Shown in pieces: positions 14,561 through 64,000 of a stretch of DNA of 64,000 bases (positions are counted from its first letter, which is position 1; each line of letters opens with the position of its first letter). This DNA comes from Iphione sp. A-MEVVRFRX5 (lineage: Eukaryota). The notes below the pieces were generated by a model. The model saw only the letters and a program-made list of their open reading frames with translations, had not been told where the DNA came from and searched no databases. The DNA lies in contig OZ320313.1 in assembly GCA_976226885.1 (NCBI GenBank), positions 156,364,001 to 156,428,000 of the forward strand. Direction: 5' to 3'. Made by a program: the position numbers and the translations under genes.

Positions 14561-14811
14561 ATAACATCCTTCCACTATACACCTAGATGGATATTTATTA
14601 AAGAAGAATCGATTTTTTCGTAAAGCACAGTGCCCATCCTTTTCTCTGTTCCTATATGAGAAGGTGTGCAAATATATCACAAAGCCAAACCAACACATAC
14701 AGCTTCAGAGGATTTAAACGTATGAACATGTCATTCTAGGGGTGTCTACAGAGACCTCAGTATGGTAAGATGAAATATGCTTTGGAGGTGACTGAACTAT
14801 GGTTAATTGGT

Positions 14812-15259
14812 TGCACTCCTCAAACCCACTATAACTCAGGACTTTACTCCCCAAACTCTTTGTAACTGGGGATTTTACTCCTAAAGCTCACCACAGCTCA
14901 GGATTTTACTCCTTACAGTCACCACAAATCTGGTATTTACTCCTCGAACTCACCACAACTCAGCTTTTACTCCTCAAACTCATTACAAATCTCTCTCCTC
15001 TGTGGTATGTGTTTGTATGTGCATGTATATATTAGGAAATTTACTAGAAGTCAGATTTTTACCCACAAACCCACTACAACTCACGGTTTTACTCCTCAAA
15101 CTGACTACAATGGAGGATTTTATTCCTCAAATTCATCAGCATCAAGTATTTTACTCCTCAATTTCACCACGACTCAGGATTTTACTCCTCAAACGTACTG
15201 GTACTCAGATCTTTATTTTCAAACTCGCCAGAACTTTACTCCTAAATCTCATTACAAAT

Positions 15260-48075: not shown

Positions 48076-48336
48076 TGTAGCGTTTCCCATTACGTAATAA
48101 AGACATGACCAAGGTTGTGAACAATGAAGGTTTATTCCAGAGATGTGAACACTACGGCGACTCAGCCTAGACTGACTCCCTCCTCCCTAGCAGCCCCTTA
48201 TATACCCTACCCAGGGGCAGGGGGGGGGTGGTGGGGAGTGCAGCACTCCGCACCCCCGGCGCGTCCTAGTGCAGCACTCCGCATGCAGCACTCAGCACCG
48301 GGGTTGCCTCCTGGTGCCGCACTCCGCAGCACCACA
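48076..48336 (-). repeat. Element 1 3' LTR
   Basis: Appears identical by eye to 56925-57185. On the minus strand: TATATAAG (48204-48197), AATAAA (48136-48131), and four TGC[AC]GCACTC[CA]GCA copies (as read on the plus strand) in U3. Confidence 0.99.
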
Positions 48337-48348
48337 CTGCCCCCTCCC
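48337..48348 (-). other. Polypurine tract GGGAGGGGGCAG
   Basis: Directly abuts the TG of the 3' LTR. Confidence 0.9.
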
Positions 48349-48445
48349 GAAACGAAACTTTGTCCCCAAAGTTCTAACATACTTCAACATCGGAACAGTC
48401 CAACCGTAACCTGGAACAGTCAACAAGGCACAGGTGATCCACAGC

Positions 48446-51163
48446 TCATCGTAGGGACACTGTCCACACCTCCTTCAGGTTGGCGACAACACAGTCGCCG
48501 TCGCGGGACTGGTCCCAGGTGGTCAACCTGCGCATGGCAGTGCCCCTAGTGAGGTTCTCAAACCTCCGTGCGTGCCAGCGCATTAGCTCGGCTGAGCCTA
48601 GCTGATCCGGTCCCCTCGGCCGGAAACGAATACTCTGGTTGAGGGTCAGCTTCACCTGATTTCCCCCCAACGCCTGGACTTCCGATCTCCCTGATGCTCG
48701 TACGATCTCCCAGCCCTCGGGAGGTGCGGACTGGCAAGAGACGAAGCGTACTCCGGTTTCTTCTGGCGAGGGGGGGGAGATGTCCTGGTAAGACCAATAT
48801 TGCGTGGGGGACCGAACGCCCGACGGCAGCCACGGCTGTCCAGCCCCTCGTCCCAGGCCCGGCGACGACAAGGGGAGTACTCGCGCCGTAGGGGATATGG
48901 CTCCTCGCGCCAGGTTCGGAAGGGACGCCCGTCTCTGCAAACGGGGGCCTGGGGGTGTCCAGCGTGGGGGCGCGTCCCCGGAGGGACCGGGCCGTAGGGG
49001 GCGGTCGACGAGGGCCTCCACGTTCACACTGTGCACCCGTAGCGGTCCTCGGGGCGGTGGCACCGCGCCGGCCCCAGGGACAACTGGCGGTGCCAGCTCC
49101 ACGTTGAAATCCCTGGGAGGAGGCTCGTGGTCGGGCGCCACCCCGGGTCCTTCCTCGTCGGTATGGGGTGGCCTTGGAGAGCCGGGGGCCGGCTCGAGTT
49201 GCCCCGTCTCATCCTCACGGTCAACAGGTGGCGGCACTCCCGGTCGCTCTCCAGCTACACCTGGTCGTGGCGGCTCGACGACATTGGTGTCCACGTTCCC
49301 TTCGCCAGTCCCCAGTCCGGCCGTGGTAGACGGGTTCGCTGCGGGGGGTGTGCGTAGAGGGGCCACCGGACCGACTTCCTCCGATGGTGCCGGTGATGCA
49401 CTTCCGGTCCCCTTCTCCTCCCGGTCCGGAGCCCTGGGTGGGGGACCCGCTGGACGTGCCGGCGGACCCGTTGCGGAGGGGCCAAGTGAAGAGGAAGTAG
49501 GCCCGGCCTCCTCCTGGTGGACTGCCAAGGGTCTGCCGACCCCCACCCCTGCGTCGCTGGAGACGTCCTGAGGCTCGGTATCCTCCTCAATCGGCGTGAG
49601 CCCGCGGCCCAGCCCCCCCGGTGGGGTCAACGCGGAAGTACCGCCCTGGTCCGACGGCGAGGTGGTCGGTCGGTCCGCTGGAAGCCTTGGAGGCGGCGGG
49701 GTGGATGTGTCGTCCCGACCTGACGTACTGTGCTGGGAGAGGCTGGCCAGGGTAACTGCGGCCTCCTCCTCTAAGTCTGGAAGTTCATCGGAACTGATGT
49801 CATCGACCCAGAAGGAGGTGCCCAGGGTCTCGGCAAACACTCTCCTTATGGGGCTGATGTCAAGCGCATCGCCCTTCTTGGTGGAAGACCCTGGTGTCGA
49901 GGGGGAGGGCGCTGCCGTATCTCCTCCGGGGGTTATCTCGCCTTCCATGGGGCGGGTCTCGCTCCCCGGTCGCTTCCGGGGGAGGGGAGGGGAGTCCTCC
50001 GGCGAATCTGAGATGACCACCGGTTGGGACGGCGAGGCCTCCTTCGACCAGCCTGGTCCAAGGCGGCGGTCTAGCTCTTCCTCTGTGTCAGTGGCCGACC
50101 CACGACCCAGCTTGAGCGGCGGCTGCCCTGGCCGCGACGACTTAGATGGGGGAGCCTTCCCCTTTCCTTTTCCGTGCGACTTCGTCGTGGCGGGTCCCTT
50201 GCCCTTACTTGCCCCGGCACGGCCTTGATGACGTGTTGCTGCTCGTCCTCTGCCCGGCGAATATACGGCATAGGGGGGTTGGGCCGTCGGTCCAGGGGAG
50301 GGGTGCGCCGGGGTGGCCTGTTCCTCCTCGTCTTCTTCGACCCTCGACTGGGGGGGGGTGAACAGCTGCCGCCCTCCAGACCCCTGGTCAGCTGGTAGGT
50401 TGATCCCCTTTGGGGTTGGGACCAGGGGGAGGGCCCGCGCGCACGTGGTCGGACGTTCCTTAGGGGCCCTGGCGTAGGTCCGTGGCCGCATCCTCTCTGG
50501 CGGTGAGGCAGACCCTCCGCTGGTTCCGGCCCGGCTGCCTGGCGATGGTCCGGCCTCGGAGGTTGATCCATGCGCCGGCGTCTCGGACTGAGAATCCGCC
50601 GACCCGGCTGACGCGGAAGTAGGCGGCCCCTTGCTGCCCGCGGAGCTGCTGGGGGTTGCTGGGGCAGAGCGGTCGGTGCCGAGTCGGCGACGTGCCCGGC
50701 GGGCTGGTGGGCGCGATGGTCGAGGGGGTGCTTCCTCTCCCGACTCGGCGTCCTCGTCCGAGGACTCAACGACCTCTGCCCTGAGATCCTTGGTTCTTGC
50801 GGTGGCCTCGCGACGGCGCCGCCTGGCCAGCTCTGTCAGCTTGTCTGCAGGGCACTCGATGGCGACCCCACGGGTGGGGTTGAACCCCGAGAATCGCACA
50901 TAACCGATGTCCACTGTCTGTGTCATCTGGAGGGATCGGTGTACCCCCAGAAGGTGCCGTTTCCAGTCCGTTCGTCTGCGGAAGGCGGTGTTCTTGCAGG
51001 TTTGGACGGGGCAAATCCAGCCGAACCCCTTAGGGCTGTGCACTTGCTCCATATGGCGTCGTAAATTTTGCCTCTGCTGGAAACCAGTATCGCACAGATG
51101 ACATGCGAATGGAGCTGTGGCAAGGGGTACTTCCCCGGAGGCAGATGGGGTCTGGTCGGTCAT
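48446..51163 (-). CDS. ORF3-like module (905 aa from MTDQT): two C2H2 fingers, ~700-aa Pro/Ser/Gly/Ala-rich region, ~120-aa ordered C-terminus; in frame with pol
   Basis: FACHLCDTGFQQRQNLRRHMEQVH and CPVQTCKNTAFRRRTDWKRHLLGVH at 51109-50939. The ATG is preceded by the acceptor ttgcttgtttgtcccctgcAG|GA. Confidence 0.8.
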   Translation of the reverse strand: MTDQTPSASGEVPLATAPFACHLCDTGFQQRQNLRRHMEQVHSPKGFGWICPVQTCKNTAFRRRTDWKRHLLGVHRSLQMTQTVDIGYVRFSGFNPTRGVAIECPADKLTELARRRRREATARTKDLRAEVVESSDEDAESGEEAPPRPSRPPARRARRRLGTDRSAPATPSSSAGSKGPPTSASAGSADSQSETPAHGSTSEAGPSPGSRAGTSGGSASPPERMRPRTYARAPKERPTTCARALPLVPTPKGINLPADQGSGGRQLFTPPQSRVEEDEEEQATPAHPSPGPTAQPPYAVYSPGRGRAATRHQGRAGASKGKGPATTKSHGKGKGKAPPSKSSRPGQPPLKLGRGSATDTEEELDRRLGPGWSKEASPSQPVVISDSPEDSPPLPRKRPGSETRPMEGEITPGGDTAAPSPSTPGSSTKKGDALDISPIRRVFAETLGTSFWVDDISSDELPDLEEEAAVTLASLSQHSTSGRDDTSTPPPPRLPADRPTTSPSDQGGTSALTPPGGLGRGLTPIEEDTEPQDVSSDAGVGVGRPLAVHQEEAGPTSSSLGPSATGPPARPAGPPPRAPDREEKGTGSASPAPSEEVGPVAPLRTPPAANPSTTAGLGTGEGNVDTNVVEPPRPGVAGERPGVPPPVDREDETGQLEPAPGSPRPPHTDEEGPGVAPDHEPPPRDFNVELAPPVVPGAGAVPPPRGPLRVHSVNVEALVDRPLRPGPSGDAPPRWTPPGPRLQRRASLPNLARGAISPTARVLPLSSPGLGRGAGQPWLPSGVRSPTQYWSYQDISPPSPEETGVRFVSCQSAPPEGWEIVRASGRSEVQALGGNQVKLTLNQSIRFRPRGPDQLGSAELMRWHARRFENLTRGTAMRRLTTWDQSRDGDCVVANLKEVWTVSLR

Positions 51164-54100
51164 TCCTGCAGGGGACAAACAAGCAACAGTATAAGTCGGG
51201 GCTTCATACAAAGCAGGTGCGGCATGAACGATTGAACTCCGCAGCGGCGTAGCAAGTGCCGCTGCGGCTTTAAGGTGGCGCTGCGGCGGGTCACTACCAG
51301 AACTCCGCTGCACTTTTTTACCATGTACTAAATGCGGCGAATTATCACTCAACTGTCGCTGTTGCGGCCCCCTATCGTGCGGCGAATCAGAACTCCGCTG
51401 CACTCGTGGCGAACTATCGCTAATACTCCGCTGCCGATGTTTACTTGCTGCTGCGGCGTGCGATCCCCGATTATCGCCCAATTGCCAAGGCGGCCTAGAG
51501 GTGAAATCATGCCTTACCTCCGCTGTAAGTTTTCCTGCGCAACGTAGGGGTGGTGCTGCGACTAATCTTGTTGTTTTCGCTCTTGCCGATTCGTGCCAGA
51601 TGGAGTTGACGATGAAACTTGGTGTAACTGCTGCGGCGGCCTTTTCACGCTGCGCACTCCATGGGTTGTCAGGGACGCTGGGCCGAGCGTCTCGGTCGAC
51701 CGCGGCGCCCCCTATCATGAGTGCGGAGTTCCCCCACGTGTTGCGGAGTTTTGACTTTGACTCCACAGCGGCGGTTGCCCCTACTCTGGCCTCCGCAGCG
51801 GCCGATTTTGACTTCTCCGTGGCCACTGTTGCGACGTCCTCGGTTATCGCCGGCTTGAGGCGATCTGCATGCACAACCTTCCTTCGCGCACCTCTCCCTA
51901 TTCGATAGACAACTGCGGACAGTCTCTCCTCCACCTGCCACGGACCTTCCCACCAGCTCTGGAACTTGGGAGATACGCCCTTTTTTTTTAGTGGGGTGAA
52001 AAGCCACACTTTCTGTCCCACCACGTACTCCTGGGGGCGCACCTTCTGGTTATACCAGTCCTGCCACAACTCCGCTGCCTTATTCAGCTTGCAAGCGACC
52101 CACTGGTGGGCTTCCCGGACTTCTCCTTCCACCTGCTGCGCATACTCGCCTCTTTCCATGGTTGGTCCTTCAGGGTACCCGTAACGGAGCTCGGCTGGGG
52201 TAGCAACCTCCCGATGCAGGGTCAGCCAGTTAGGGGACACGCCCGTGGTGCTGTGGGGGGTGGCCCGATATGTAGCCATGACGAAGGGGAGGGCCAAGTC
52301 CCAGTCGGCCTGCCTCTCTTCTCCCAGGGTGGCTAGCATGCTGGCGAGCGTCCTATTGAAACGCTCCACCACTCCGTCGGCTTGGGGGTGGTATGGTGTG
52401 GTCCTGGATTTCTCGATCCCCAGCAATCGTAGCACCTCCGCGAAGAGTTCGGCTTCAAAATTCCGCCCCTGGTCGGAGTGCAAGGCTCTAGGAGGCCCGA
52501 AACAGCACACCACTTCCCTGACAATCACTTCGGCGGTTGCCCGAGCTGTGATTTCCGCCAGTGGGAACGCTTCTGTCCATTTAGAAAAGTGGTCCGCCAC
52601 TACTAGAATGTAATGGTGTCCCCGCTCCGTGCGCGGGAGTGGCCCTAGGACGTCGGCTGCTACCAGTTCCCAAGGCTCGCTGACTTTCCGGTACTGTAGC
52701 GGTGCCCTCTTGTTGCGGTATGGCCCCTTCCTACGCTGGCACGCCTGACAAGCTTGTGTCCAGCGCAGGACGTCCCGCCGGAGTCCAGGCCAGAACCACT
52801 TAGTCCTAAGAGCGGCTCCGGTCTTCTCCGCTCCCAGGTGGCCACTCAACACCCCTTCATGAGCCTCTTGCCAAACCTGTTTCCGTAGACTCCTCGGCAC
52901 GTATGCCTGATACACCAGTCGCGAGGGCTCTTCCTGCCAACACCGCATCAACACCCCACGCCGGAGGCTTAACCGTCTCGCCTCAGCGCGCAGCTGGCGC
53001 TCTTCCCAGGACAACCCGGGTTCGAGTCCGGGGATTTCTCTACCTTCCTCGAGTGCATCTATGATGGCGGCTATGGGCTCCTCCTCCCGCTGGGCGTCCC
53101 GCAGCTGCGGTCGATCTCCAGTTGGGTCCACGGTCACCATGGCCGTGAGCTCCCGCACCGGTTCTTCCCCCTCCTCGTTACGGTGGCACTGTTTACAGCG
53201 CTGGCGAGATAGCCCGTCTGCATTGCCATGTTTCTTTCCGGGTCGGTGGACGATTAGCAGGTCATAGCAGAATATTTCCTCCAGCCACCGCGCCAGCTGC
53301 CCCTGGGGCTCACGGAAATTGCACAGCCAGCGCAAGGAGTCGTGGTCAGTGCGTATCTCCACAGTGTGCCCTCCCACATAACAGCGGAACTTCCGTAATG
53401 CGAACACCACTGCCAACAATTCTCGACGAGTGACACAATAGTTCTTTTCAGGGCGCGTGAGGGTCCGGCTGGCGTACGCCAACACCCTCTCCTGTCCCTC
53501 TTGCTCCTGGGACAGCACCGCACCGATGCCCATATCCGACGCGTCCGTGTCGATCAAGAGTCGTCCTTCTGGTTTCGGGAACCCCAGGATGGGTGCCGTC
53601 ACCAGCCGTTCCTTCAACTCCTCGAAGGCCAATTGGCACTGCTCTGACCACGCGAACTCGGCGTGCCGATCGGCCAGTGCGTGTAGTGGTGCTGCTATCC
53701 TCGCGAAGCCCTCCACGAAATTTCGGTAATACGAGCAGAGGCCCAGGAACCCGCGCAGCTCCTCTTGGCAACGAGGCACAGCCCATTCCGCCACCGCCGC
53801 TATCTTGGCCGGGTCTACTCCGACCCCCGCGGCGGACACCCGGTGCCCGAGGTAAGCCACCTCCCGTCGGAACAGCTGGCACTTCGAAGCTTTCACATGC
53901 AACCCGGCCTGCCGGAGCCGCTGGAACACCATTCCTAGGCGCTGGCACATCTGCTGCACCGAGTTACCCAGCACGATAACGTCGTCGAGGTAGACGAGAC
54001 ACTCCATGCCGACAAGCCCTCGCAACACTGACTCCATCAACCTTTCGAATGTGGACGGGGCATTGCACAGTCCAAAAGGCATAACTCTAAACTGGTAAAG

Positions 54101-55531
54101 CCCTCTGGGTGTGCACACTGCGGTCTTCTCTGCATCGCGTGGATCCATGCGTACCTGCCAGTATCCACTGGCCAAATCCAAAGCTGAGAAAAACCGGCTT
54201 CCTTGCAAGGCGTCAAGGGTGTCGTCGATTCTGGGGATAGGATAAGCGTCCTTCTTCGTCACCGCATTCAACCGTCGGTAATCCACGCAGAACCTGGTCC
54301 CCCCATCCTTCTTCCTCACTAGGACCAGGGGCGAGGCCCACGGGCTAGTAGAGGGCTCTAGGACTCCGCGTTCTACCATGGAATCTACCTCCTGCTCGAG
54401 CTCTGCCCGCTTCTGTGGAGGGAGACGCCGCACCCGCTGACGAATGGGCGGGTGCCCCTGGGTGTTTATCCGGTGTTGCACATCAGGAGCACAACCGAGG
54501 GGCCCACTGGGGGTTTGGAACACCCCCTTGTACTCTTCCAGCAAAACACGTACCATCCGCCGTTCCTCTGTGGAGAGGTCGTCTGGAAGGCTCTCCAGCA
54601 GTTGTCCCACCGCCTCCGACTGCTCACCCTCAACGGTTGAGTTGGCTCCAACCTGAATAGGGTCCACCTCCTCCACCGGATGGGCCCGCCCCACGTGGGT
54701 TCCGCCGTGGATGTACGCCTCTTGTGCACCCGGGTTCCATACTGGCACCAGCAGCTTCCGCTCAGTGGGACACACCACTGCCTGTGCTACCCGGAGACCT
54801 GAGCATTCTTCGAACCATAGATTACCCTCGGTCAGCACCCCCGCGGGTTCTCCGAGTGTCGGTGCCCAGGCGGCCGTCACCCAGCCTAACTGTCCCGCTG
54901 CGATGCGGTGGTCCCCTCGGGCCGCCAGCAATACGGCGCCGTCCCCCACAGGGGCAGCCAGAGTTACCTGCGCCCGCACGGTATCCACTGTCGCTTCCCA
55001 GGCGTCCAGCCAGTCAAGTCCCAGGATCGCCAGCACCTCCATGTCGACCACTCGAGCCCTGACGGGTACCCATGTGTCCCCGAAGTGTACTTGACTGGCG
55101 ACCGTCCCTCTCACAAGTAACGGGGCCCCATCCACGCCGAACACCCGGGCGTCTATGGGGCCCAAGGCCACACCCTGCAGATTGTCGAAGACTCGGCTTG
55201 AGAGTAGTGAGGCTGATGCTCCCGTGTCCACCAGCCAGTCAAAAGTGCAGCCACCCATCCTTCCGGACAGTAGCAACCCACTGCACCCTTGACGTCGGCG
55301 TCCCTGAAGGACCACACCGCCCGTGGTGGCCCCTGCTAGCGCTCGCAGGTGTTCAGGCGGTGGCGAACCGCTGCGGGCTGGGACCTCTACTCTTGGTGAC
55401 TCTACCGCCCGCCCCTCTAGGCTCGGGCGGGCGGTCCCCCGTTTCCCGGCTCCGCGGTGGGCGCGGCGGCGGCATTGGCGCTCGGGGGTGCAGTACCAGC
55501 CTCCGCCGCCAACCGTGCTGGACACTCCCAC
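48446..55531 (-). CDS. pol: Pol polyprotein (protease, RT, RNase H, integrase) with a C-terminal extension of over 1100 aa
   Basis: VDTGAS protease (~55220); YLDD (53981-53992); DTDASD RNase H (~53540); H-X6-H...CQAC and D..D..E integrase; EGPW...HADRLKP end (~51851); then open to the stop at 48446. Confidence 0.98.
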   Translation of the reverse strand: MGVSSTVGGGGWYCTPERQCRRRAHRGAGKRGTARPSLEGRAVESPRVEVPARSGSPPPEHLRALAGATTGGVVLQGRRRQGCSGLLLSGRMGGCTFDWLVDTGASASLLSSRVFDNLQGVALGPIDARVFGVDGAPLLVRGTVASQVHFGDTWVPVRARVVDMEVLAILGLDWLDAWEATVDTVRAQVTLAAPVGDGAVLLAARGDHRIAAGQLGWVTAAWAPTLGEPAGVLTEGNLWFEECSGLRVAQAVVCPTERKLLVPVWNPGAQEAYIHGGTHVGRAHPVEEVDPIQVGANSTVEGEQSEAVGQLLESLPDDLSTEERRMVRVLLEEYKGVFQTPSGPLGCAPDVQHRINTQGHPPIRQRVRRLPPQKRAELEQEVDSMVERGVLEPSTSPWASPLVLVRKKDGGTRFCVDYRRLNAVTKKDAYPIPRIDDTLDALQGSRFFSALDLASGYWQVRMDPRDAEKTAVCTPRGLYQFRVMPFGLCNAPSTFERLMESVLRGLVGMECLVYLDDVIVLGNSVQQMCQRLGMVFQRLRQAGLHVKASKCQLFRREVAYLGHRVSAAGVGVDPAKIAAVAEWAVPRCQEELRGFLGLCSYYRNFVEGFARIAAPLHALADRHAEFAWSEQCQLAFEELKERLVTAPILGFPKPEGRLLIDTDASDMGIGAVLSQEQEGQERVLAYASRTLTRPEKNYCVTRRELLAVVFALRKFRCYVGGHTVEIRTDHDSLRWLCNFREPQGQLARWLEEIFCYDLLIVHRPGKKHGNADGLSRQRCKQCHRNEEGEEPVRELTAMVTVDPTGDRPQLRDAQREEEPIAAIIDALEEGREIPGLEPGLSWEERQLRAEARRLSLRRGVLMRCWQEEPSRLVYQAYVPRSLRKQVWQEAHEGVLSGHLGAEKTGAALRTKWFWPGLRRDVLRWTQACQACQRRKGPYRNKRAPLQYRKVSEPWELVAADVLGPLPRTERGHHYILVVADHFSKWTEAFPLAEITARATAEVIVREVVCCFGPPRALHSDQGRNFEAELFAEVLRLLGIEKSRTTPYHPQADGVVERFNRTLASMLATLGEERQADWDLALPFVMATYRATPHSTTGVSPNWLTLHREVATPAELRYGYPEGPTMERGEYAQQVEGEVREAHQWVACKLNKAAELWQDWYNQKVRPQEYVVGQKVWLFTPLKKKGVSPKFQSWWEGPWQVEERLSAVVYRIGRGARRKVVHADRLKPAITEDVATVATEKSKSAAAEARVGATAAVESKSKLRNTWGNSALMIGGAAVDRDARPSVPDNPWSAQREKAAAAVTPSFIVNSIWHESARAKTTRLVAAPPLRCAGKLTAEVRHDFTSRPPWQLGDNRGSHAAAASKHRQRSISDSSPRVQRSSDSPHDRGPQQRQLSDNSPHLVHGKKVQRSSGSDPPQRHLKAAAALATPLRSSIVHAAPALYEAPTYTVACLSPAGMTDQTPSASGEVPLATAPFACHLCDTGFQQRQNLRRHMEQVHSPKGFGWICPVQTCKNTAFRRRTDWKRHLLGVHRSLQMTQTVDIGYVRFSGFNPTRGVAIECPADKLTELARRRRREATARTKDLRAEVVESSDEDAESGEEAPPRPSRPPARRARRRLGTDRSAPATPSSSAGSKGPPTSASAGSADSQSETPAHGSTSEAGPSPGSRAGTSGGSASPPERMRPRTYARAPKERPTTCARALPLVPTPKGINLPADQGSGGRQLFTPPQSRVEEDEEEQATPAHPSPGPTAQPPYAVYSPGRGRAATRHQGRAGASKGKGPATTKSHGKGKGKAPPSKSSRPGQPPLKLGRGSATDTEEELDRRLGPGWSKEASPSQPVVISDSPEDSPPLPRKRPGSETRPMEGEITPGGDTAAPSPSTPGSSTKKGDALDISPIRRVFAETLGTSFWVDDISSDELPDLEEEAAVTLASLSQHSTSGRDDTSTPPPPRLPADRPTTSPSDQGGTSALTPPGGLGRGLTPIEEDTEPQDVSSDAGVGVGRPLAVHQEEAGPTSSSLGPSATGPPARPAGPPPRAPDREEKGTGSASPAPSEEVGPVAPLRTPPAANPSTTAGLGTGEGNVDTNVVEPPRPGVAGERPGVPPPVDREDETGQLEPAPGSPRPPHTDEEGPGVAPDHEPPPRDFNVELAPPVVPGAGAVPPPRGPLRVHSVNVEALVDRPLRPGPSGDAPPRWTPPGPRLQRRASLPNLARGAISPTARVLPLSSPGLGRGAGQPWLPSGVRSPTQYWSYQDISPPSPEETGVRFVSCQSAPPEGWEIVRASGRSEVQALGGNQVKLTLNQSIRFRPRGPDQLGSAELMRWHARRFENLTRGTAMRRLTTWDQSRDGDCVVANLKEVWTVSLR
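55404..55447 (-). promoter_or_regulatory. -1 ribosomal frameshift signal: G GGA AAC, 5-nt spacer, 11-bp hairpin
   Basis: Heptamer at 55447-55441 is in the gag frame, and -1 puts it in the pol frame (GKRGTARP). Stem ACCGCCCGCCC/GGGCGGGCGGT with a 10-nt loop. The same heptamer is used by PEG10. Confidence 0.9.
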
Positions 55532-56829
55532 TTGAAATGTCCCTGTTCATGGCAGTAGAAACAGGCTCCTTCTGAGGTTCGGCGACGGTTCCGGCGACCA
55601 GCCGCGGCCGGGGGCTGTTCTACTAGCTTGAGAAGCAACTGCTCCACGCACTCCCATGCGGCTGGAGCCGGTGCCGGTGCGGAGCGACTAGCGGCCACAG
55701 ACTCCCCTTCCTCCGCGCGCACGGCGTGGACCCTAGTGGCTGACCCTGACCCGGAACGCTCCTTCTCCGCACGGTGGAAGGATTCTGCCAGCAACGCCTC
55801 CAACACCGCGGATTGAAACGAGCGGGCCTTAGCCTGGACCACCCAGCGCCGGCTCCGTTCCTCTCTCAGAGCCGACACGAAGGCATCCCGGCACATGCGG
55901 TCCAGCCAGGGTCCCTCGGCCTCCGGGTAGGCTTGTCGTACCAAACGTTTGACGTCTTCAGCTAGATTCTGAGCATCTTCATCCTTCCCCTGCCGCCGCT
56001 GTTTGAGCTCTTGCTCATAAAAGGTGGCACGGTCGGCCGATTGGAAGCGATTCCTCAACGCCTCCACAATTCGATCATAAGCGCCCTCGGCTGCGACATC
56101 AATTCCGGCGGTGCGGAGAGCTGACTGTGCCGACTTGCGCAGGCAGACACTCAGTTGCAGCGCTTGTTCCACCCGGTCCCACCGGTTGGCTTGGGCCACG
56201 AGACCAAAGTGGTGCAAGTACTCGGCGAGGGGCACGGACCCATCAAATGCCTCCGGCTTTACATGGAACTTTCGCGCTGGGGTGACAGATGTAGGGGCTG
56301 CCGCTGACCGCAGCGCCTCTTGGAGGCCGGATACCAGGCTTCGCACCAGCTGGCCGCGTTCATCATCTGCCTCGGCTCGAATGGAACTGGGGAGCGTCGT
56401 CGCTGAGCGGGGGGTACTGCCGGCACTACTGGATGGTCCTGTCCCCGTCTGTGGCCCGTCCGGGTGGGGTGGCGGCGTCGCAGGTGGTGGGGTAACGTTC
56501 CGTGGCACACCCTCCTGCCCTGCAGAGGGGGGCGCGGCGGCGCCCCGCGGCTCGGTGGACACTGGTGAAGCTCCCCTGGGGGTAGACTGTGGCGTATCCT
56601 TAGGCCGTGCGGGGTGCGGCTGCGGCTGTGCGGGGTGCGGCTGCGGCTGCGGCTGTGCGGGGTGCGGCTGCGGCTGTGCGGGGTGCAGCTGCGGCTGCGG
56701 CTGCGGCTGTGCGGGGTGCGGCTGCGGCTGTGCGGGGTGCGGCTGCGGCTGCGGAGTGCGGCCCAGTTGGACTTCGTCGTCTGAGCTGGCAGGCTCCTCA
56801 CTGTCCCACTGATCGGAGTCTCCGGACAC
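55417..56829 (-). CDS. gag: Gag (capsid-like domain plus CCHC zinc knuckle); listed start is GTG
   Basis: KPEAFDG...YLHHF...W motif, CFYCHEQGHFKWEC knuckle, N-terminal PQPHPAQ repeats. Confidence 0.95.
   Translation of the reverse strand: MSGDSDQWDSEEPASSDDEVQLGRTPQPQPHPAQPQPHPAQPQPQPQLHPAQPQPHPAQPQPQPHPAQPQPHPARPKDTPQSTPRGASPVSTEPRGAAAPPSAGQEGVPRNVTPPPATPPPHPDGPQTGTGPSSSAGSTPRSATTLPSSIRAEADDERGQLVRSLVSGLQEALRSAAAPTSVTPARKFHVKPEAFDGSVPLAEYLHHFGLVAQANRWDRVEQALQLSVCLRKSAQSALRTAGIDVAAEGAYDRIVEALRNRFQSADRATFYEQELKQRRQGKDEDAQNLAEDVKRLVRQAYPEAEGPWLDRMCRDAFVSALREERSRRWVVQAKARSFQSAVLEALLAESFHRAEKERSGSGSATRVHAVRAEEGESVAASRSAPAPAPAAWECVEQLLLKLVEQPPAAAGRRNRRRTSEGACFYCHEQGHFKWECPARLAAEAGTAPPSANAAAAPTAEPGNGGPPARA
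56606..56762. repeat. Frame-preserving GC-rich tandem repeat in gag (21-nt unit plus 6-nt subunits)
   Basis: tgtgcggggtgcggc(tgcggc)n; encodes PQPHPAQ in the gag frame and SRSRTPH in the overlapping frame. Confidence 0.95.
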
Positions 56830-56905
56830 ATCAGGCGCCCCTGCCGGCCATCACCCGCGTCCCCTTCCTGTTGGCTGACCTCGGCCATGTCCAGCGGCGG
56901 GCGAG

Positions 56906-56923
56906 ATCCCACCGCTGCCACCA
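56906..56923 (-). other. Primer-binding site TGGTGGCAGCGGTGGGAT (tRNA-Leu)
   Basis: 1 nt from the 5' LTR; complementary to the eukaryotic tRNA-Leu(AAG/TAG) 3' end ATCCCACCGCTGCCA-CCA. Confidence 0.9.
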
Positions 56924-56924
56924 A

Positions 56925-57185
56925 TGTAGCGTTTCCCATTACGTAATAAAGACATGACCAAGGTTGTGAACAATGAAGGTTTATTCCAGAGATGTGAACA
57001 CTACGGCGACTCAGCCTAGACTGACTCCCTCCTCCCTAGCAGCCCCTTATATACCCTACCCAGGGGCAGGGGGGGGGTGGTGGGGAGTGCAGCACTCCGC
57101 ACCCCCGGCGCGTCCTAGTGCAGCACTCCGCATGCAGCACTCAGCACCGGGGTTGCCTCCTGGTGCCGCACTCCGCAGCACCACA
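56925..57185 (-). repeat. Element 1 5' LTR
   Basis: Direct repeat of 48076-48336. Confidence 0.99.
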
Positions 57186-59689
57186 ATAGTACAGAACCTG
57201 ACCCTACTTTCCCTTCAGTAGGTTCCCCAGGCCATAGTACTATTTGGCTAGTTGATAAATTTTTAAATAAATTAGAGACTTCTTGCAAAATGTAAGCGTC
57301 AGAATGTTTGCTATTATCTCATCTCTTCACAGAGTTTATATGTACTGGTATACTACATTTCTTTGTAAATGTGTGTTGGAATAAAACATTTTATCTTTAC
57401 AAGATTCTACTTGTGCTATAACAATACTCAAACATTATTGAAAAGGTAGCCCTAAATACATCACATTTACGAGTATTTCATCAGTATATTGTTAAGATCG
57501 TGTCACGATTATTATATGATCCTCTCTGCTTAAGAAAAAAAATTGATTTTCTCTATGAATCATTATGAAATCTTTGTATGTAAGGGGAGAGAAATGAACA
57601 AATGATTATCTCTGGAAATGCATACGCAGGGCCTCATGTACAGCTGTATGTTTTTCATAATCGTTGTCTGACGTTTTGCTTTTTTTCTAAGCTTGCGTTT
57701 CTTTGGATTGTAATACCATTCTAAATTTTAAAACCAGGTCAGTTCTTGTTTTTACAGTGCTGCACTTGATGTGTTGTACACATAGTTTTGCAGCTAGATT
57801 CATATATTGTCAAGTAAGCGGGTGAAAGGCATTTGGACCTTTCACACATATTGTTTTATTTATCTGCAGCGTTTCCTTTTGTGGACTGACTCAAACATAA
57901 TAGCGCACAGTAGCTTCATGTTCTGCTGTTTCCCCACAGGCTTTGTTACTGTGTCCCTTATCTAGAGCTTTCGACTCGTCCTTTTCTTTCTATTTTGTCT
58001 GTATCTGTTGTATTGTATTTATGAGAATACTTTTTTCTGTTATCAATTTTTGTTCTCGCGTTATTCTCTTGCTTCTAAAACTTCTTCATGTGAGCTGCGA
58101 CTTTAAGCTTAATCTCCTCTTCTCTTTTCTAAAAATCTATCCAATGGATATTTCACCGAAAACAATAAAATGTTTTGCTTGGAATACAATATGGCAGGCT
58201 TTGCTCCGATCAAAATGAATAGTTTCATGACGAAGTTGGGGGGAAAACATAAAATATTCTCTTGTAACGGTGTTTTCAATTGCTCCGTGATTGGTCTTCA
58301 AGTTCACATTTATAGATCTTTTACTGTTCGTGATTAGGTTCCAGTTATGAATGCTACTGTTGAGCAATTCAAAAATGTAAAATGTTTATATCTCGTTTTT
58401 AACAATAAACATAAGGGAACAAAGATAATGATCACTGTTGTTGTAACAAAAATTGTTTTGGAAACGATATAACTCTCCTCTAGGTGTCATTCATAATGCA
58501 TGTACAAGGATTTCGACGCAGAGGTCTGATGATTCAGCAATTACGTCGTCTGAAATGGAGAATACACAGTAGCTACGATTATGTCACCTGTAGGAGTAAC
58601 AATACTTTATAGTACCCTGCAGTGAATGTTTGCAGCAAGCAAGATGTGGAACACACAGACTCGAATGCATGAGCCACTTGTACCTAATGATGAACAGCTT
58701 TGCCGACGCACTTGAAGGAAGGCCCTTCAAACTACTTGAGGTACAGATGTAATCATATATACATAACTGTATGTTTGGAAACGCTAGATCGTTTAGGAAC
58801 ATTATAGAGGCCGAAGCAGCAAAATGATAGCTGCAATCGTGAAGTTAACATGTGTTTGACTGGCTTCAGTGAAGCTGCCGACGTTCTCTGCAAAACTGAA
58901 AGGGAGCACCATGCATACATACATTAAGAATGTCTGAGATTTTTTGTATATATATCAGGCCAGTATTTTGCCAGTGGGCATGTCTACAGTCAAAAGGAGA
59001 TTTCTGCTATTGGAGATTGTAGAAGAGCCTGTCCGTCCATACTGAATAATATTTTTTTTTTCGCAATAGTGACGAGTCCAAAGAACAGATCTTAAAATTT
59101 CCGTACCGTCGTCTGTTTGGGGCCTCGTGATACGTCTATTGGCTCTACAATGTTTGCCACAGCGTAACCAGCTTCAATGTAGGAGATGGACACTCTAACA
59201 TCCTCCAAAAAGGATCAACACAGAGTTTCCCATTTGCCAGAGGTAGCAGCCTCCTGTACAGTATATATTGGGTCCTAAATAATGCATATACTTCTAATTC
59301 ATACTGAGAACACTGTGACTTCATCGACTATATTACGGCCTATAAGGATCCCATGGAGATGAGTTATTGAGGTATCCAGAGTGCCATTCATAGAACTGAC
59401 ACATATACATGGTTAATGAATCAGTTAAGGTCACCACGTTAAGCAAGACCATGTCCAACATTTATTCGGGAGAATATTTAGCTCAGCTTATTTAGAGTAA
59501 TGTGCAACTGGTTGTCGGGATATATTCTGACGAATTGAGGTATTTCTATTCACATTCCCCTGGATTGGGAGATTGGGGAAGCATGGGCTCTCAGAATGTA
59601 GTCTATATGTCGTCAGTTGAATTAAAGTTAAATCCCTAGATAAGTGTTTTCTTTTTCTTAGGCTGGTATAATCCCATATACCATGGTAT

Positions 59690-60124
59690 TGTAACGTGAC
59701 TAACGTAGAGAGAAATGACAAGTCAACGGACCGAGCAAAAATAATCTTGAGAAAAAGTAGAATATAAGTTTCACTCCAATATACACTAATTCGTTGTGCA
59801 TGGAATGGTCTCTCTCGTATGTGCAAAGAGAAAGGGTCTGTTTATTCCAGAAAACATGGGTTTATATATGACAGTGTTACATAAGAGTTGCTAAAAATAG
59901 GATGTCTAGACACCTGCATATGCGCAGCAAATAAACAGTCCGCGAAGTACCCCAACTACGCAGCACCACAATCCGTGAGATACCTCTACTACGCAATACC
60001 TCTATTGGTCCGGAAGTCGTCACGGATCGCACCCTATCCCGGATCGCGGATTCCGTTGCGGACTATTCTCACGGACCGACCTTCTCTCTAGCACTATACA
60101 CTCTTATGACATGCCTACGTTACA
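59690..60124 (-). repeat. Element 2 3' LTR (435 bp)
   Basis: Terminal inverted repeat TGTAACGT...ACGTTACA. On the minus strand: CCAAT (60008-60004), TATATAAA (59868-59861), AATAAA (59846-59841). Confidence 0.85.
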
Positions 60125-60138
60125 TTCTCCCCTTCTTT
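60125..60138 (-). other. Polypurine tract AAAGAAGGGGAGAA
   Basis: Immediately precedes TGTAAC of the LTR. Confidence 0.85.
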
Positions 60139-60868
60139 AAGAGGGAAACTTATTCGCTTTTTACTGAAATATCTTAAATTATGAGTATTACTTTTTATCT
60201 TATTCTCTATATAAATGATTTTTCGGGTACGAGATGTACTTCTCGTCTAAAAAAGTTTTTCTTTGGACTATTCGAAGTCCTTACGGATTATCTATAATCT
60301 TATCTTTCTTTCTGTTTCGATTACTGGAAAGGTGAAACAAGATTCTATAGATAAAATTCGATATACTTTATTCTTTCTCCTTAAGGGAGTTAAAATATAT
60401 TTTTCTTTTCTTTTGAACACATGGCATCTCAACATACATCAATACAATCTTCACGGATCATGTCAAGAAAATAAAAGATATGGAAACGGATCGACCTTTC
60501 ACGAACTCGTTACTTAGTGGTCTGGTAAAACTGAAATTCGAAATAATGTCTTTTTGTATCATCACAGTTCGTCTTTTACCTTGAAAAAGGCATTCATAAA
60601 TAGTAATATCAAAAATATGCGAGCAATATTCATAGTAAAATCATCATGCGCTTCCGGTTTAGTTCTTTTTCGCGCGGAAAGTCATTTCCGGTTCAGTTCT
60701 TGCGCTACTGTCACGTTGTTGGACTATACTTTTTGGGACGATAAATTATGGATTAAGATCTCTGAAAAGGAATTACAAACAGCATTTGGCATTCACAAAT
60801 AATCAAGGACGGCATTAGGCATGAATGGACTAGAAATTATCACTACTTTAGTCCTTCTCAACTGGATT

Positions 60869-62422
60869 TCACTCGCGGGGCGCCCAAGTGCCCCACGTAT
60901 GCGTGTCGAGGACGGGGTGCGTCTCCTCCCGGATCCTCGCCTGCAACGTGTTGTCTTGCCGTCGTCTGGTGTCTCGAGCAAGGACCAGCTGACCCTCTAT
61001 GTTCGTGGGCGACATCCCTTGAAACGCAGCTTGGACTTGAAGAGTGGAGATCTGGTCGACAGTAATGTTGTGCCTCTGGAACTCAGAATTGTCGCGCCAG
61101 AATTCAGGGTTGGAGGGCTTTCTTGCACCGGGCAGTATCAGGTAGGGCCGGTCCCGCAACGGACCGAACGGATCGCCAGGTGCCAGCACTCCATCCTTTA
61201 TGGCCTCCATCGTTGCTGCCGACAGAGACACCAGATACTTTTGCTCAGGTGTGAGCACGTCCCAGTTGACTGGCGGCCATGTGATGTCGACCCTCAGAGG
61301 TACCGGATTCTGAGGAGCCGTCCTGGCCGTTCCACTAAATGGGTATACCGTCCCATCAGCTACTTCAGTCAGCCACCGGTTGAAAGCCGAACCGGACTCG
61401 TTGTCTGGTCGAGGTCGCTCTGGTGGTGGAATCGCCTTCTGTCCCGTCTTTTCTTTCTTCTTGCCCTTGCTTGCTATCACCTTGCCGCCTACGGATTTCC
61501 TCGCAGTGTTCCTCGGTGGTTGCGGCTGCTGAGGAGGCTGGAACTGCACGTCCTCCTCAATCTGTTTGTCCCGTCTGCGTAGCATCCGTTTCCCGCTGGC
61601 TTGATCTTGCTGCTCCAGTCTCTGCTCGTCAGAACTGGTAGTCTGCTCGACATGATCGTCCTCTGTAGCCGTTCCCGTCTCGTCTCGATCTTGCTTTTTC
61701 CCAGCCTCGATCCCCTCTTCCAAGATACCAGAAGAGATCTCGACTAGAGTTTTAGGAGCGTCCGCAATCAGCTTCTCCACTTCCTCGTCCATGGATGGGG
61801 TAGTGCTTATCATGCTGATATCACTAATACCGCTAATGTTCAAATGTTCAGGCAAATCCGTCACACACTCTTCTGTCGGCTTTTGAAGTTTCTTGACCGG
61901 CAGATCAATCGATTCCTCTGGTAATCGACGTTTCTTGGGTGGGAGTGTGGGTTCTGGGGTGACTTCAGTGGAACTCGGCCGTGACGGTTCCTCAGCCTTG
62001 CTCCCGGACGACCCCGGATCACCAGCTACTTCAGGGGATACCATCACTGCACGCCCTTTCAGTGAGACGATCTCCCCTCCTCGCTGTCTCCAAGCACGGA
62101 CCAGGTTCCGCGCTTCGATGGCTGGCTCAGACTCGCTGTCAAAATCATCCGGAATGTCCCAGCGAAAGTTGTTAAGCGCGAAGAGGTGGTGAAACTTCTT
62201 CGCGAGGAAGTAATTCTGGCTTGCATGCCGGCTTCGTACATGATCCGTCCAGGATTTTAACTCGTGAGCGCACTTCTTGCCTGGACACCACGGACAGATC
62301 ATCTTCAGTAATCGTCCACTCTTAGTCATCCCGTGCACTTTAGCTTGATGCTTGTTAAGGGCGCTCTGCCCTTTTACTGTGAGTTGACACTGATCACATG
62401 TGAGGAGCGGAGGATTTGCCAT
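60869..62422 (-). CDS. 517-aa tandem C2H2 zinc-finger protein (ORF3-like): two fingers, acidic/basic disordered middle, ordered C-terminal domain
   Basis: CDQC-x12-H-x4-H and CPWC-x14-H-x4-H at 62398-62225; ATG start; basic patches (PPKKRR, KGKKKEK) that could act as NLS. Confidence 0.85.
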   Translation of the reverse strand: MANPPLLTCDQCQLTVKGQSALNKHQAKVHGMTKSGRLLKMICPWCPGKKCAHELKSWTDHVRSRHASQNYFLAKKFHHLFALNNFRWDIPDDFDSESEPAIEARNLVRAWRQRGGEIVSLKGRAVMVSPEVAGDPGSSGSKAEEPSRPSSTEVTPEPTLPPKKRRLPEESIDLPVKKLQKPTEECVTDLPEHLNISGISDISMISTTPSMDEEVEKLIADAPKTLVEISSGILEEGIEAGKKQDRDETGTATEDDHVEQTTSSDEQRLEQQDQASGKRMLRRRDKQIEEDVQFQPPQQPQPPRNTARKSVGGKVIASKGKKKEKTGQKAIPPPERPRPDNESGSAFNRWLTEVADGTVYPFSGTARTAPQNPVPLRVDITWPPVNWDVLTPEQKYLVSLSAATMEAIKDGVLAPGDPFGPLRDRPYLILPGARKPSNPEFWRDNSEFQRHNITVDQISTLQVQAAFQGMSPTNIEGQLVLARDTRRRQDNTLQARIREETHPVLDTHTWGTWAPRE

Positions 62423-62644
62423 CTTGTCTGCTTGCCTGTCTTCGAAGAACAGACTGAGACACCGAGGATGACGAAATAATATACTGTGCCGTGACGTATG
62501 CCGGGACGGATCACGCGAGATGGTCCCGGCGCGGGCAATTCAAACTTTTGCCGCGGCGCCCCCCATGCCGGGTAACATTATGCAACTTCAGGTAACACCC
62601 TTATCGTGTCAAGTTTCATTGCACATTTCGGATCCCAGAATTCA

Positions 62645-62652
62645 TATAAAAG
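62645..62652 (+). promoter_or_regulatory. TATA box TATAAAAG of the antisense gene
   Basis: Consensus match ~150 nt upstream of the GTGAGT donor at 62799. Confidence 0.55.
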
Positions 62653-62796
62653 GGTCCGTATTCAATTCTTCGCCATATCTCCTCGTTTTGCTGCCAAAGG
62701 AACTGTTGCCGCTGCCTTTGCAGTCTTCAAAGTTTACTTGTATTTCTTCTCGCGGACACGCCCATCTCCACGACGGACCGCGCCAGCTACCTTAGG

Positions 62797-63825
62797 ATGT
62801 GAGTATGGTTTTTCTTCTCGTTTCCTATTTCTTTTTCAGGTTTTTATATATGAGTGATACCTGTTCATTTTATCCTGTAATTTCTTCTTCAAATTTAGAC
62901 TTATTTCCGTCCGTTTTTTTTTTTTTGTAGGGCTTCTCCTCTTCGAAGCATTATTGCTACCCTGACAGACTCAGGTATCATAGTCTGCTATAGGGGTCCC
63001 ACTTTACAGATGCATCGTCTATTGGGCCCAGAAATCCAAGTGAACTGGGTGGATGCCGGAATGTCCATTTCAGCACGAACACACAGATCAGGTGTTCCAG
63101 ATCGGAGTCCACCCCTCACGTTCACGATTCCTGAGATGACAGTCCGTCCCATTCGACGCGAGGGTGCCTTGATGGTTACAGTAGTGGGAAGGCGAGGTTT
63201 ACCTGAGGCCAGGCAGACGTATCTTCTGGCTCCAGAAGATATTGTGCTCGAGGGGAGGGTATATACCCTCTCTCTCCACTGTTGCCTGCTGCCGCCTATT
63301 CATGTCATTGACCACAACAACAATACTCCACCTCCTTCTCCCAACGAGAATGAGGCTGTAGCTGCTAATGCAGGAGTGGTTTCAGCAGTTCCACCCCCTC
63401 GGAGAATTCAACTCCACGACAACGGATCCTTTATCATATGGGTTCCGACCATGTATGATAATCTGGGGAGGGAGATGTTGTCGCTGCCCCCTCCTAATGA
63501 AAATTCCGTTTTCACTATTCTTCATCCGGCGGACCCTCAGGCTCAGCCAGGGGCCCCAGGGGAGGATGATATTGTTAATATGGACCTAATGTCTCCACAA
63601 GACTGCTTCGACAGGGTTCATCCGGACGGACCAGAAGCATACAATGCCCTTCTTACTCTGGCCAATGCGCTGCCACCGTCACCCTCAGCTGTTCTGGACG
63701 CATCTCTAGAGACGATTCCTGAGGTTGAATTCCACGGTCCGGCGCCAACCGTCACCATAGATCCTGAAGACCCACTTGAGGCTGTGGAGTCTTCAGTTCC
63801 ATCGTCTACTGGCTTGACAAGGTAG
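62797..63825 (+). CDS. Spliced antisense gene of unknown function, join(62797..62798,62931..63825), 298 aa
   Basis: Donor AT|GTGAGT, 132-nt intron, T-run acceptor ttttttttgtAG|G. Splicing gives aggATGG. The frame is open from 62932 into the 271-aa ORF 63010-63825. Confidence 0.7.
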
Positions 63826-64000
63826 AATTCTGCAGAGGGTGATCAGACCTCTTTTCTTTTCTGCTTTATCAAATTCTTCATCCAACGTGGTAACGTTTCA
63901 CCTCTATATTCAAAAATTCGATTCCTGTGCACTAATACCTTCTGTCCGGATTTAGTCTTCTGTAATATATGTCTTCCTAGATCCAATTGTTTAACATGTA

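Follow-up and report, generated by a model that had tools for sequence, protein, structure and literature searches.

Antisense accessory genes of LTR retrotransposons have puzzled students of plant elements for more than 25 years, and they are still without an assigned function. As far as the accounts cited here go, the class termed aORF-3R comprises antisense ORFs located between pol and the 3′ LTR and includes maize Grande gene23, rice RIRE2, Silene Retand/TRP28 and Botrytis Boty brtn (PMC7264820, PMC11963269). The env start codon of Drosophila gypsy/springer is described as being assembled by splicing, with AT contributed by the 5′ exon and G by the 3′ exon (PMC2585583, PMC12992720). HTLV-1 HBZ and APH-2/3/4 are spliced antisense accessory genes whose promoter, in the account followed here, is TATA-less and lies in the 3′ LTR (PMC10186651), and the mussel Steamer-like element MchSLE-1 is reported to carry a 67-aa antisense ORF with a Kozak-context start, driven by the 3′ LTR with an IRES (PMC10974842). 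With regard to protein composition, lysine deserts are reported as enriched in ubiquitin-proteasome proteins and present in some viral proteins; according to the same account they are linked to ubiquitylation avoidance in proteins of the ubiquitin system and, speculatively, in viral proteins (PMC10169902).

The gene described here was found in a 64-kb stretch of Iphione DNA (hereafter the window), inside a 9,418-bp Ty3/Gypsy LTR retrotransposon (element 2) which occupies the minus strand, the gene itself being encoded on the plus strand.

Element 2, its copies and the zinc-finger neighbour

The features that delimit element 2, together with its sense genes, are as follows.

59686-59689, no strand: target-site duplication GTAT, 4 bp, which recurs beyond the other LTR
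59690-60124, minus strand: 3′ LTR, 435 bp, TG...CA
60125-60140, minus strand: polypurine tract
60869-62422, minus strand: sense accessory ORF of 517 aa with two C2H2-like motifs at the N-terminus
62491-62644, no strand: conserved non-coding block, predicted shared (divergent) promoter, mean identity 0.81 compared to 0.61 in the intron
63843-64000, minus strand: pol, 3′ terminal part (integrase end), meeting the antisense gene tail-to-tail; pol and gag run past the window
G000:C1:156432673-156433107, minus strand: 5′ LTR, outside the window

Read on the minus strand, the order is LTR, gag, pol, antisense gene, sense 517-aa ORF, a 740-bp 3′ region and LTR. The two LTRs, each of 435 bp with TG...CA ends, are 100% identical to each other, and matching LTRs, the target-site duplication, a primer-binding site (PBS) as well as a polypurine tract all lie around the antisense gene. 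The PBS matches a tRNA-Leu gene in three of the four loci scanned. The pol domains follow the Ty3/Gypsy order of protease, RT, RNase H and integrase, the zinc knuckle of gag was matched by a profile below the curated cut-off, and the element has no env. The stops of pol and of the antisense gene are 17 nt apart. In the AT-rich 3′ region there is a GC-rich patch (60640-60700) with what we take to be E2F-like and ETS-like words.

Exact genome-wide probe matches numbered 1,531 for the splice donor and 1,506 for the acceptor, corresponding to about 1,500 copies of the element. Older copies were collected as two sets. The first (n = 20) was chosen by likeness to a homologous protein, so intact ORFs could be favoured in it, and its LTR pairs are 94.5-99% identical where both were found. 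The second was chosen by DNA likeness and contains 19 distinct copies, 18 of which were used, one being dropped as it exits the element early. The splice-site alignment of 39 older copies joins the 20 and the 19 after removal of one duplicate. All the copies are related, so the counts given below are not counts of independent events. The copies include a sister subfamily; no more distant subfamily was found in the genome search.

Several observations concern the element as a whole. In copy L067 (G000:C4:25708460-25718459) a 1.7-kb deletion took the zinc-finger gene and the TATA box, leaving the antisense ORF intact. In an element-wide comparison, dS is 0.7-1.3 in both accessory genes and about 0.4 in gag and pol, which hints either that the accessory block was exchanged between the subfamilies or that gag-pol is under extra constraint. 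Third-position variation in the last 60 codons of pol (63846-64000 and beyond) is 0.10-0.28 compared to the 0.4-0.7 typical across most of pol, which suggests an overlapping signal or recombination. The window also contains a second young Gypsy element (48076-57185) with identical 261-bp LTRs and a tRNA-Leu-type PBS as in element 2; its pol frame extends about 1,100 residues beyond the integrase and contains a C2H2 finger, which is thus fused to pol in that element and encoded by a separate gene in element 2. At 14810-15199 there is a 31-nt tandem unit present eight times in two blocks.

The zinc-finger ORF matched Pfam zinc-finger profiles with an E of 0.057, below the curated cut-off, and its dN/dS is 0.09-0.15 in the 20 older copies; no homologue of its first 140 residues was found among proteins of 284-905 aa. 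A plus-strand ORF at 60821-61582 turned out to be a shadow of this gene, with a dN/dS of 1.17. About 250 bp separate the zinc-finger ATG from the predicted antisense start, and the accessory genes, head-to-head in this way, both point outwards from a conserved block that they share. The word CGGAY, which was chosen post hoc, occurs nine times in the LTR against a shuffle mean of 1.5 (none of 300 shuffles reached nine) and five times in the internal promoter and exon 1 (a count reached by nine of 300 shuffles). Five of the LTR occurrences (59690-60124) are located on one strand within 55 bp of U3 and are kept in 17-18 of the 20 older copies. CGGAY is a candidate binding site of the element's zinc-finger protein.

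The antisense gene and its predicted split start codon

An earlier note on this DNA, made from the sequence alone, had proposed a spliced antisense gene inside element 2, and all of its coordinates were found to be correct in the sequence. The gene model is as follows.

62645-62652, plus strand: TATA box of the antisense gene, TATAAAAG; TATAAA is kept in 38 of the 39 older copies and deleted in the remaining one
62675-62798, plus strand: predicted exon 1 (5′ UTR), beginning 30 nt past the T of the TATA box and ending with AT at 62797-62798
62799-62930, plus strand: predicted phase-2 intron, 132 nt, GTGAGT...T-run...TAG
62837-62839, plus strand: conserved inner CAG after a pyrimidine run, a possible second acceptor
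62931-63825, plus strand: coding region of exon 2, consisting of the G of the start codon, 297 codons and the stop TAG (63823-63825)

The gene is very probably transcribed from 62675 and spliced from 62798 to 62931. The predicted internal TATA promoter lies 2.5 kb from the LTR, and the CA at the predicted transcription start, 30 nt after the TATA box, is kept in 37 of the 39 older copies. The intron has 29% GC compared to 53% and 52% in its flanks. The proposed length of 298 aa holds, as one residue from the split codon is followed by 26 codons ahead of the ATG at 63010 and by 271 more up to the TAG. So does the strong Kozak context on splicing, with A at −3 (kept in 38 of the 39 older copies) and G at +4. 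Two smaller points of the note stand only in part. The in-frame stop at 62647 is present, but it belongs to the TATA box, upstream of where transcription is predicted to start (62675), and would therefore be absent from the mRNA; and no ATG precedes the start between 62645 and 62797, but unspliced RNA does have an ATG made of the AT and the G of the intronic GT, with TGA or TAA directly after it. A coding role of exon 1 was ruled out by a dN/dS of 0.53 and frame-breaking length differences.

The conservation of the splice signals points to splicing. AT, GT, YAG and the following G are each present in all 39 older copies; the donor is GTRAGT in 36 of them (GTGAGT in 26, GTAAGT in 10), and the acceptor is CAG in 32 and TAG in seven. 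The interior of the intron, by comparison, has just five invariant positions out of 123, and it is between 108 and 136 nt long, with lengths in all three frames. Among the young copies, the T-run alone shifts the intron length between 130 and 139 nt, exon 2 being constant at 297 codons. The pattern of ATGTRAGT, pyrimidine run and YAGG occurs a single time on both strands of the 64-kb window, i.e. beyond chance. An inner pyrimidine run with CAG, 28-41 nt into the intron, is retained in 36 of the 39 older copies despite the drift of the remaining intron; its frame relative to exon 2 differs among copies, and its use as an acceptor would yield out-of-frame products in many of them. At the other end of the ORF, the last codon and the stop (63820-63828) resemble a splice donor, reading AAG|GTAGAA in the window and AAG|GTGAGA in most of the sister subfamily. 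P0001 and P0002, the two relatives of the protein from outside, end in Arg as well, and one copy has a silent change abolishing the GT. A second intron at the ORF end is possible judging from these sequences.

It was also claimed that the intron survives retrotransposition, and this agrees with the complete absence of intron-less joins genome-wide, compared to 1,531 matches of the unspliced donor probe. This is the expected outcome, since the intron lies on the strand opposite the genomic RNA; given the established LTR life cycle, an antisense intron is not a splice substrate in that RNA and every new copy retains it. An RNA-copied element can thus keep an ordinary intron-containing gene by reversed orientation. 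The idea of splicing-gated translation as a special device was overstated: a phase-2 intron with a GTRAGT donor places a stop directly behind the split codon, any phase-2 intron gates the start in the same way, and gypsy env provides a precedent. In practical terms, ORF-based annotation would overlook the true start of the gene.

Purifying selection on the antisense ORF is as strong as on pol. In the 20 older copies the dN/dS of exon 2 is 0.05, compared to 0.08 for pol and 0.23 for gag, and the most constrained stretch is that of the 26 codons before Met 63010, with a value of 0.02. Variants shared by at least three of the 20 copies fall on codon positions 1, 2 and 3 of the ORF 24, 16 and 189 times, respectively; in the 26 codons before the Met 15 of them are synonymous and one is non-synonymous. 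In the 18 copies picked by DNA likeness pN/pS is 0.11 for the whole ORF and 0.04 for the same 26 codons. The other reading frames gave ratios of 2 to 5, and the mirror frame on the sense strand gave 0.11 with 224 stop-containing codon pairs as against 6. Of the 20 older copies, 13 have the full-length ORF, and it has 297 codons at 29 of the 30 young loci, including the window, the remaining locus not having been located by the probe. The proposal of a second, antisense accessory gene has thus held up on dN/dS, splice-site conservation and location between matching LTRs: the gene is real and under strong purifying selection, and going by its conserved signals it is probably spliced.

The lysine-free protein and its possible role

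The note had recognised no family for the product, and none was found here: 17 members of the antisense protein gave no Pfam match at E up to 5, and PDB sequences yielded no match with an E of up to 10. The outside relatives amount to one cluster of two sequences, P0001 and P0002, with 70% identity. A search of 1.84 billion representatives, the only one to cover longer or fused forms, returned a single match, and no relatives were found among shorter proteins, metagenome contigs or viral contigs. The AlphaFold2 models of the whole protein and of residues 1-130 are poor, with pLDDT values of 32 and 34. The predicted layout consists of a beta-rich part (residues 1-125, with strands in residues 6-99), a Pro-rich linker, a short beta segment, an acidic helical segment (residues 201-262, 11 D/E in 62) and an acidic Pro-rich tail. 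The note had described the N-terminal third as hydrophobic and beta-like; the protein is indeed beta-like but not strongly hydrophobic, its top 19-residue Kyte-Doolittle mean being 1.16. No membrane segment, signal peptide, DNA-binding domain, leucine zipper or basic nuclear signal was found in the protein; the ligase-binding motifs looked for, BC-box, PPxY and PTAP among them, are likewise absent. The idea that the two beta-rich parts repeat each other was dropped, since 925 of 1,000 shuffles reached as high a score.

The protein contains no lysine among 297 residues, while having 18 Arg and 14 Asn, and all 14 AAx codons of its ORF encode Asn. From positional base composition 7.5 lysines would be expected (P about 5e-4, a guide only, as the absence was noticed post hoc). 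P0001 and P0002 likewise lack lysine; in each of the three other proteins of the element the lysine count is between 34 and 77. In the 18 of the 20 older copies without a net frameshift, the AAR:AAY ratio is 1:213 in frame compared to 154:55 and 117:112 in the other two frames, so lysine is missing specifically in the ORF's own frame. The exclusion is not complete, with 10 lysines found in 5,330 codons of the sister subfamily and three positions having it in two copies each.

The reading which we rank first, at a little under an even chance, is that the gene has its own internal promoter and one splice forming the start codon, and that its lysine-free product would serve as a ubiquitin-resistant adaptor acting in trans on host factors. 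An integrated copy would use the internal TATA promoter for a short plus-strand mRNA, a single splice would complete its start codon by joining AT and G, and a poly(A) signal located about 520 nt into pol, the first that is conserved, could end the mRNA. Strong selection on a gene outside gag-pol would require a benefit to the producing copies or their close kin, from which we infer that the protein acts in trans. As to how it might do so, a tentative suggestion by analogy is that a folded beta-rich N-terminal domain would bind a host target and the acidic Pro-rich remainder would recruit a partner, the avoidance of lysine reflecting either activity of the protein near ubiquitin or SUMO ligases or a need for a long lifetime; such an adaptor would help the element spread. 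The reported tie of lysine deserts to ubiquitylation avoidance is the reason for the first rank. Since no family and no solved relative were found and both folds are poor, it is composition and analogy that point to an adaptor. A partner of the zinc-finger protein is ranked second and a nuclear-transport helper third.

A partner or brake of the zinc-finger protein, expressed from one divergent promoter so that the two proteins would jointly tune LTR transcription, is rather unlikely, although it would fit the spliced gene just as described. Tas and Bet of foamy viruses are a model for such a pair, which may also be likened to HBZ against Tax. The head-to-head layout with starts about 250 bp apart and a conserved block between them is consistent with it, as are the acidic helical segment and the enrichment of CGGAY in the LTR and, to a lesser degree, in the internal promoter and exon 1. 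The antisense protein, however, has no DNA-binding domain, leucine zipper or basic nuclear signal, and CGGAY, besides being chosen post hoc, is found throughout the element with a frequency of about 9 per kb and is kept in the promoter no better than several other CpG words.

A broader proposal, which we consider improbable, would combine both accessory genes: element 2 might be an envelope-less animal retrotransposon with a complex-retrovirus programme run from one internal two-way promoter, comprising a zinc-finger switch of its own LTR on one strand and, on the opposite one, a spliced protein with a new fold and no lysine, which would hijack the host ubiquitin system in order to remove a silencing factor. 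If true, it would explain the burst to about 1,500 copies.

The third-ranked reading, that the N-terminal domain represents a captured piece of a Nup133/ELYS/WD40-type beta-propeller and helps to move nucleic acid of the element into or out of the nucleus, is decidedly unlikely. It originates from a comparison of language-model features, in which Nup133-N came first both for the whole protein (0.92; 189 of 256 features in common) and for residues 1-125 (0.88), and all ten best named matches belonged to one clan; the strands predicted in residues 6-99 also agree with it. The recognition score of 1444, however, is under the tool's threshold of 2300, below which high scores are weak evidence, and the Pfam, PDB and 1.84-billion-representative searches described above, with their single match, speak against it. 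Besides, about 125 residues are too few for a whole beta-propeller.

It is very unlikely that the main product is the antisense RNA, silencing the element by pairing with the end of pol and leaving the protein secondary. Self-silencing by antisense RNA has been raised, in the account cited, for plant elements and Drosophila micropia (PMC7264820). In the element studied here all 20 copies keep the first plus-strand AATAAA, some 520 nt within pol, and synonymous variation in the last 60 pol codons is reduced, both of which would suit such pairing; but third positions of the antisense ORF vary freely and amino acids do not, which is a mark of selection on the protein. Antisense RNA may be an added role rather than the main one.

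There is only a slight chance that the ORF is unspliced, Met 63010, an intronic ATG or a non-AUG codon serving as its start, and that the splice-like motifs are kept for some other reason. An in-frame intronic ATG occurs in 12 of 40 copies (in 10 of these, all from the sister subfamily, it stands 30 nt ahead of exon 2), so that in those copies unspliced RNA could be translated from it, and P0001 retains the internal Met. The other 28 of the 40 copies, the window included, have no upstream in-frame ATG, and Met 63010 is present in just 19 of the 39 older copies and absent from 20; as the whole sister subfamily has Leu at this position, the start must be upstream. The 26 codons before the Met, 19 of which are conserved in P0002 along with two conservative changes, would on this reading be left without a reason to be the most constrained part, and the donor and acceptor vary solely within the splice consensus in an intron that has otherwise drifted.

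That the ORF is a nested insertion, a shadow of a sense ORF or a chance occurrence has practically nothing to recommend it, as no point in its favour was found, the gene occupies the same place in both subfamilies and about 1,500 copies, and the mirror frame is rich in stops.

Comparison with known systems

Among openly accessible main articles, none turned up that describes a protein gene both antisense and spliced in a Ty3/Gypsy element of an animal. Every ingredient stressed by the earlier note nevertheless has a precedent, so neither the split start nor the antisense gene as such is new. The Iphione case matters in that the family is very young and very abundant, the transcript is precisely predicted and the protein has a testable biochemical signature, the absence of lysine.

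The closest class is aORF-3R. As far as the accounts of that class go, the Iphione gene resembles its members in being antisense, in being flanked by pol and the 3′ LTR within a Ty3/Gypsy element, in being present in most copies and in being conserved like pol. An upstream promoter of its own is described as shown for Grande and is predicted for the Iphione gene. Unlike the members of aORF-3R, the Iphione gene has a predicted intron through its start codon, stands head-to-head with a sense zinc-finger gene and encodes a lysine-free protein; unlike in Retand/TRP28, no Transposase_28 or other Pfam domain was found in this protein.

With gypsy env, as described, the gene has in common an AT|G start across a splice in a Ty3/Gypsy element, the Iphione start being recognised by its conservation in 39 of 39 copies. 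Going by the same descriptions, env is translated from a sense subgenomic RNA which originates in the 5′ LTR and competes with genomic RNA, and it encodes an envelope protein, whereas the Iphione gene is a separate antisense unit whose protein has neither a signal peptide nor a membrane segment.

The analogy with HBZ drawn in the note is good for orientation and splicing but not for the promoter, reported as TATA-less and located in the 3′ LTR for HBZ and predicted to be an internal TATA promoter here. HBZ is moreover described as having a bZIP and belonging to a true retrovirus with env, while Pfam detected no bZIP in the Iphione protein and no sequence likeness was found between HBZ or APH and the latter. 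MchSLE-1, in the account available, and the Iphione element both present an antisense ORF with a Kozak-context start in an animal LTR retrotransposon.

Like the reported lysine-desert proteins, the Iphione protein has a long conserved stretch without lysine and is partly disordered; those proteins are described as mostly host members of the ubiquitin system, and the likeness is one of composition. Compared to all these systems, what the Iphione gene adds is an animal as its likely host, a zinc-finger gene as its head-to-head partner and a product that is an orphan and free of lysine.
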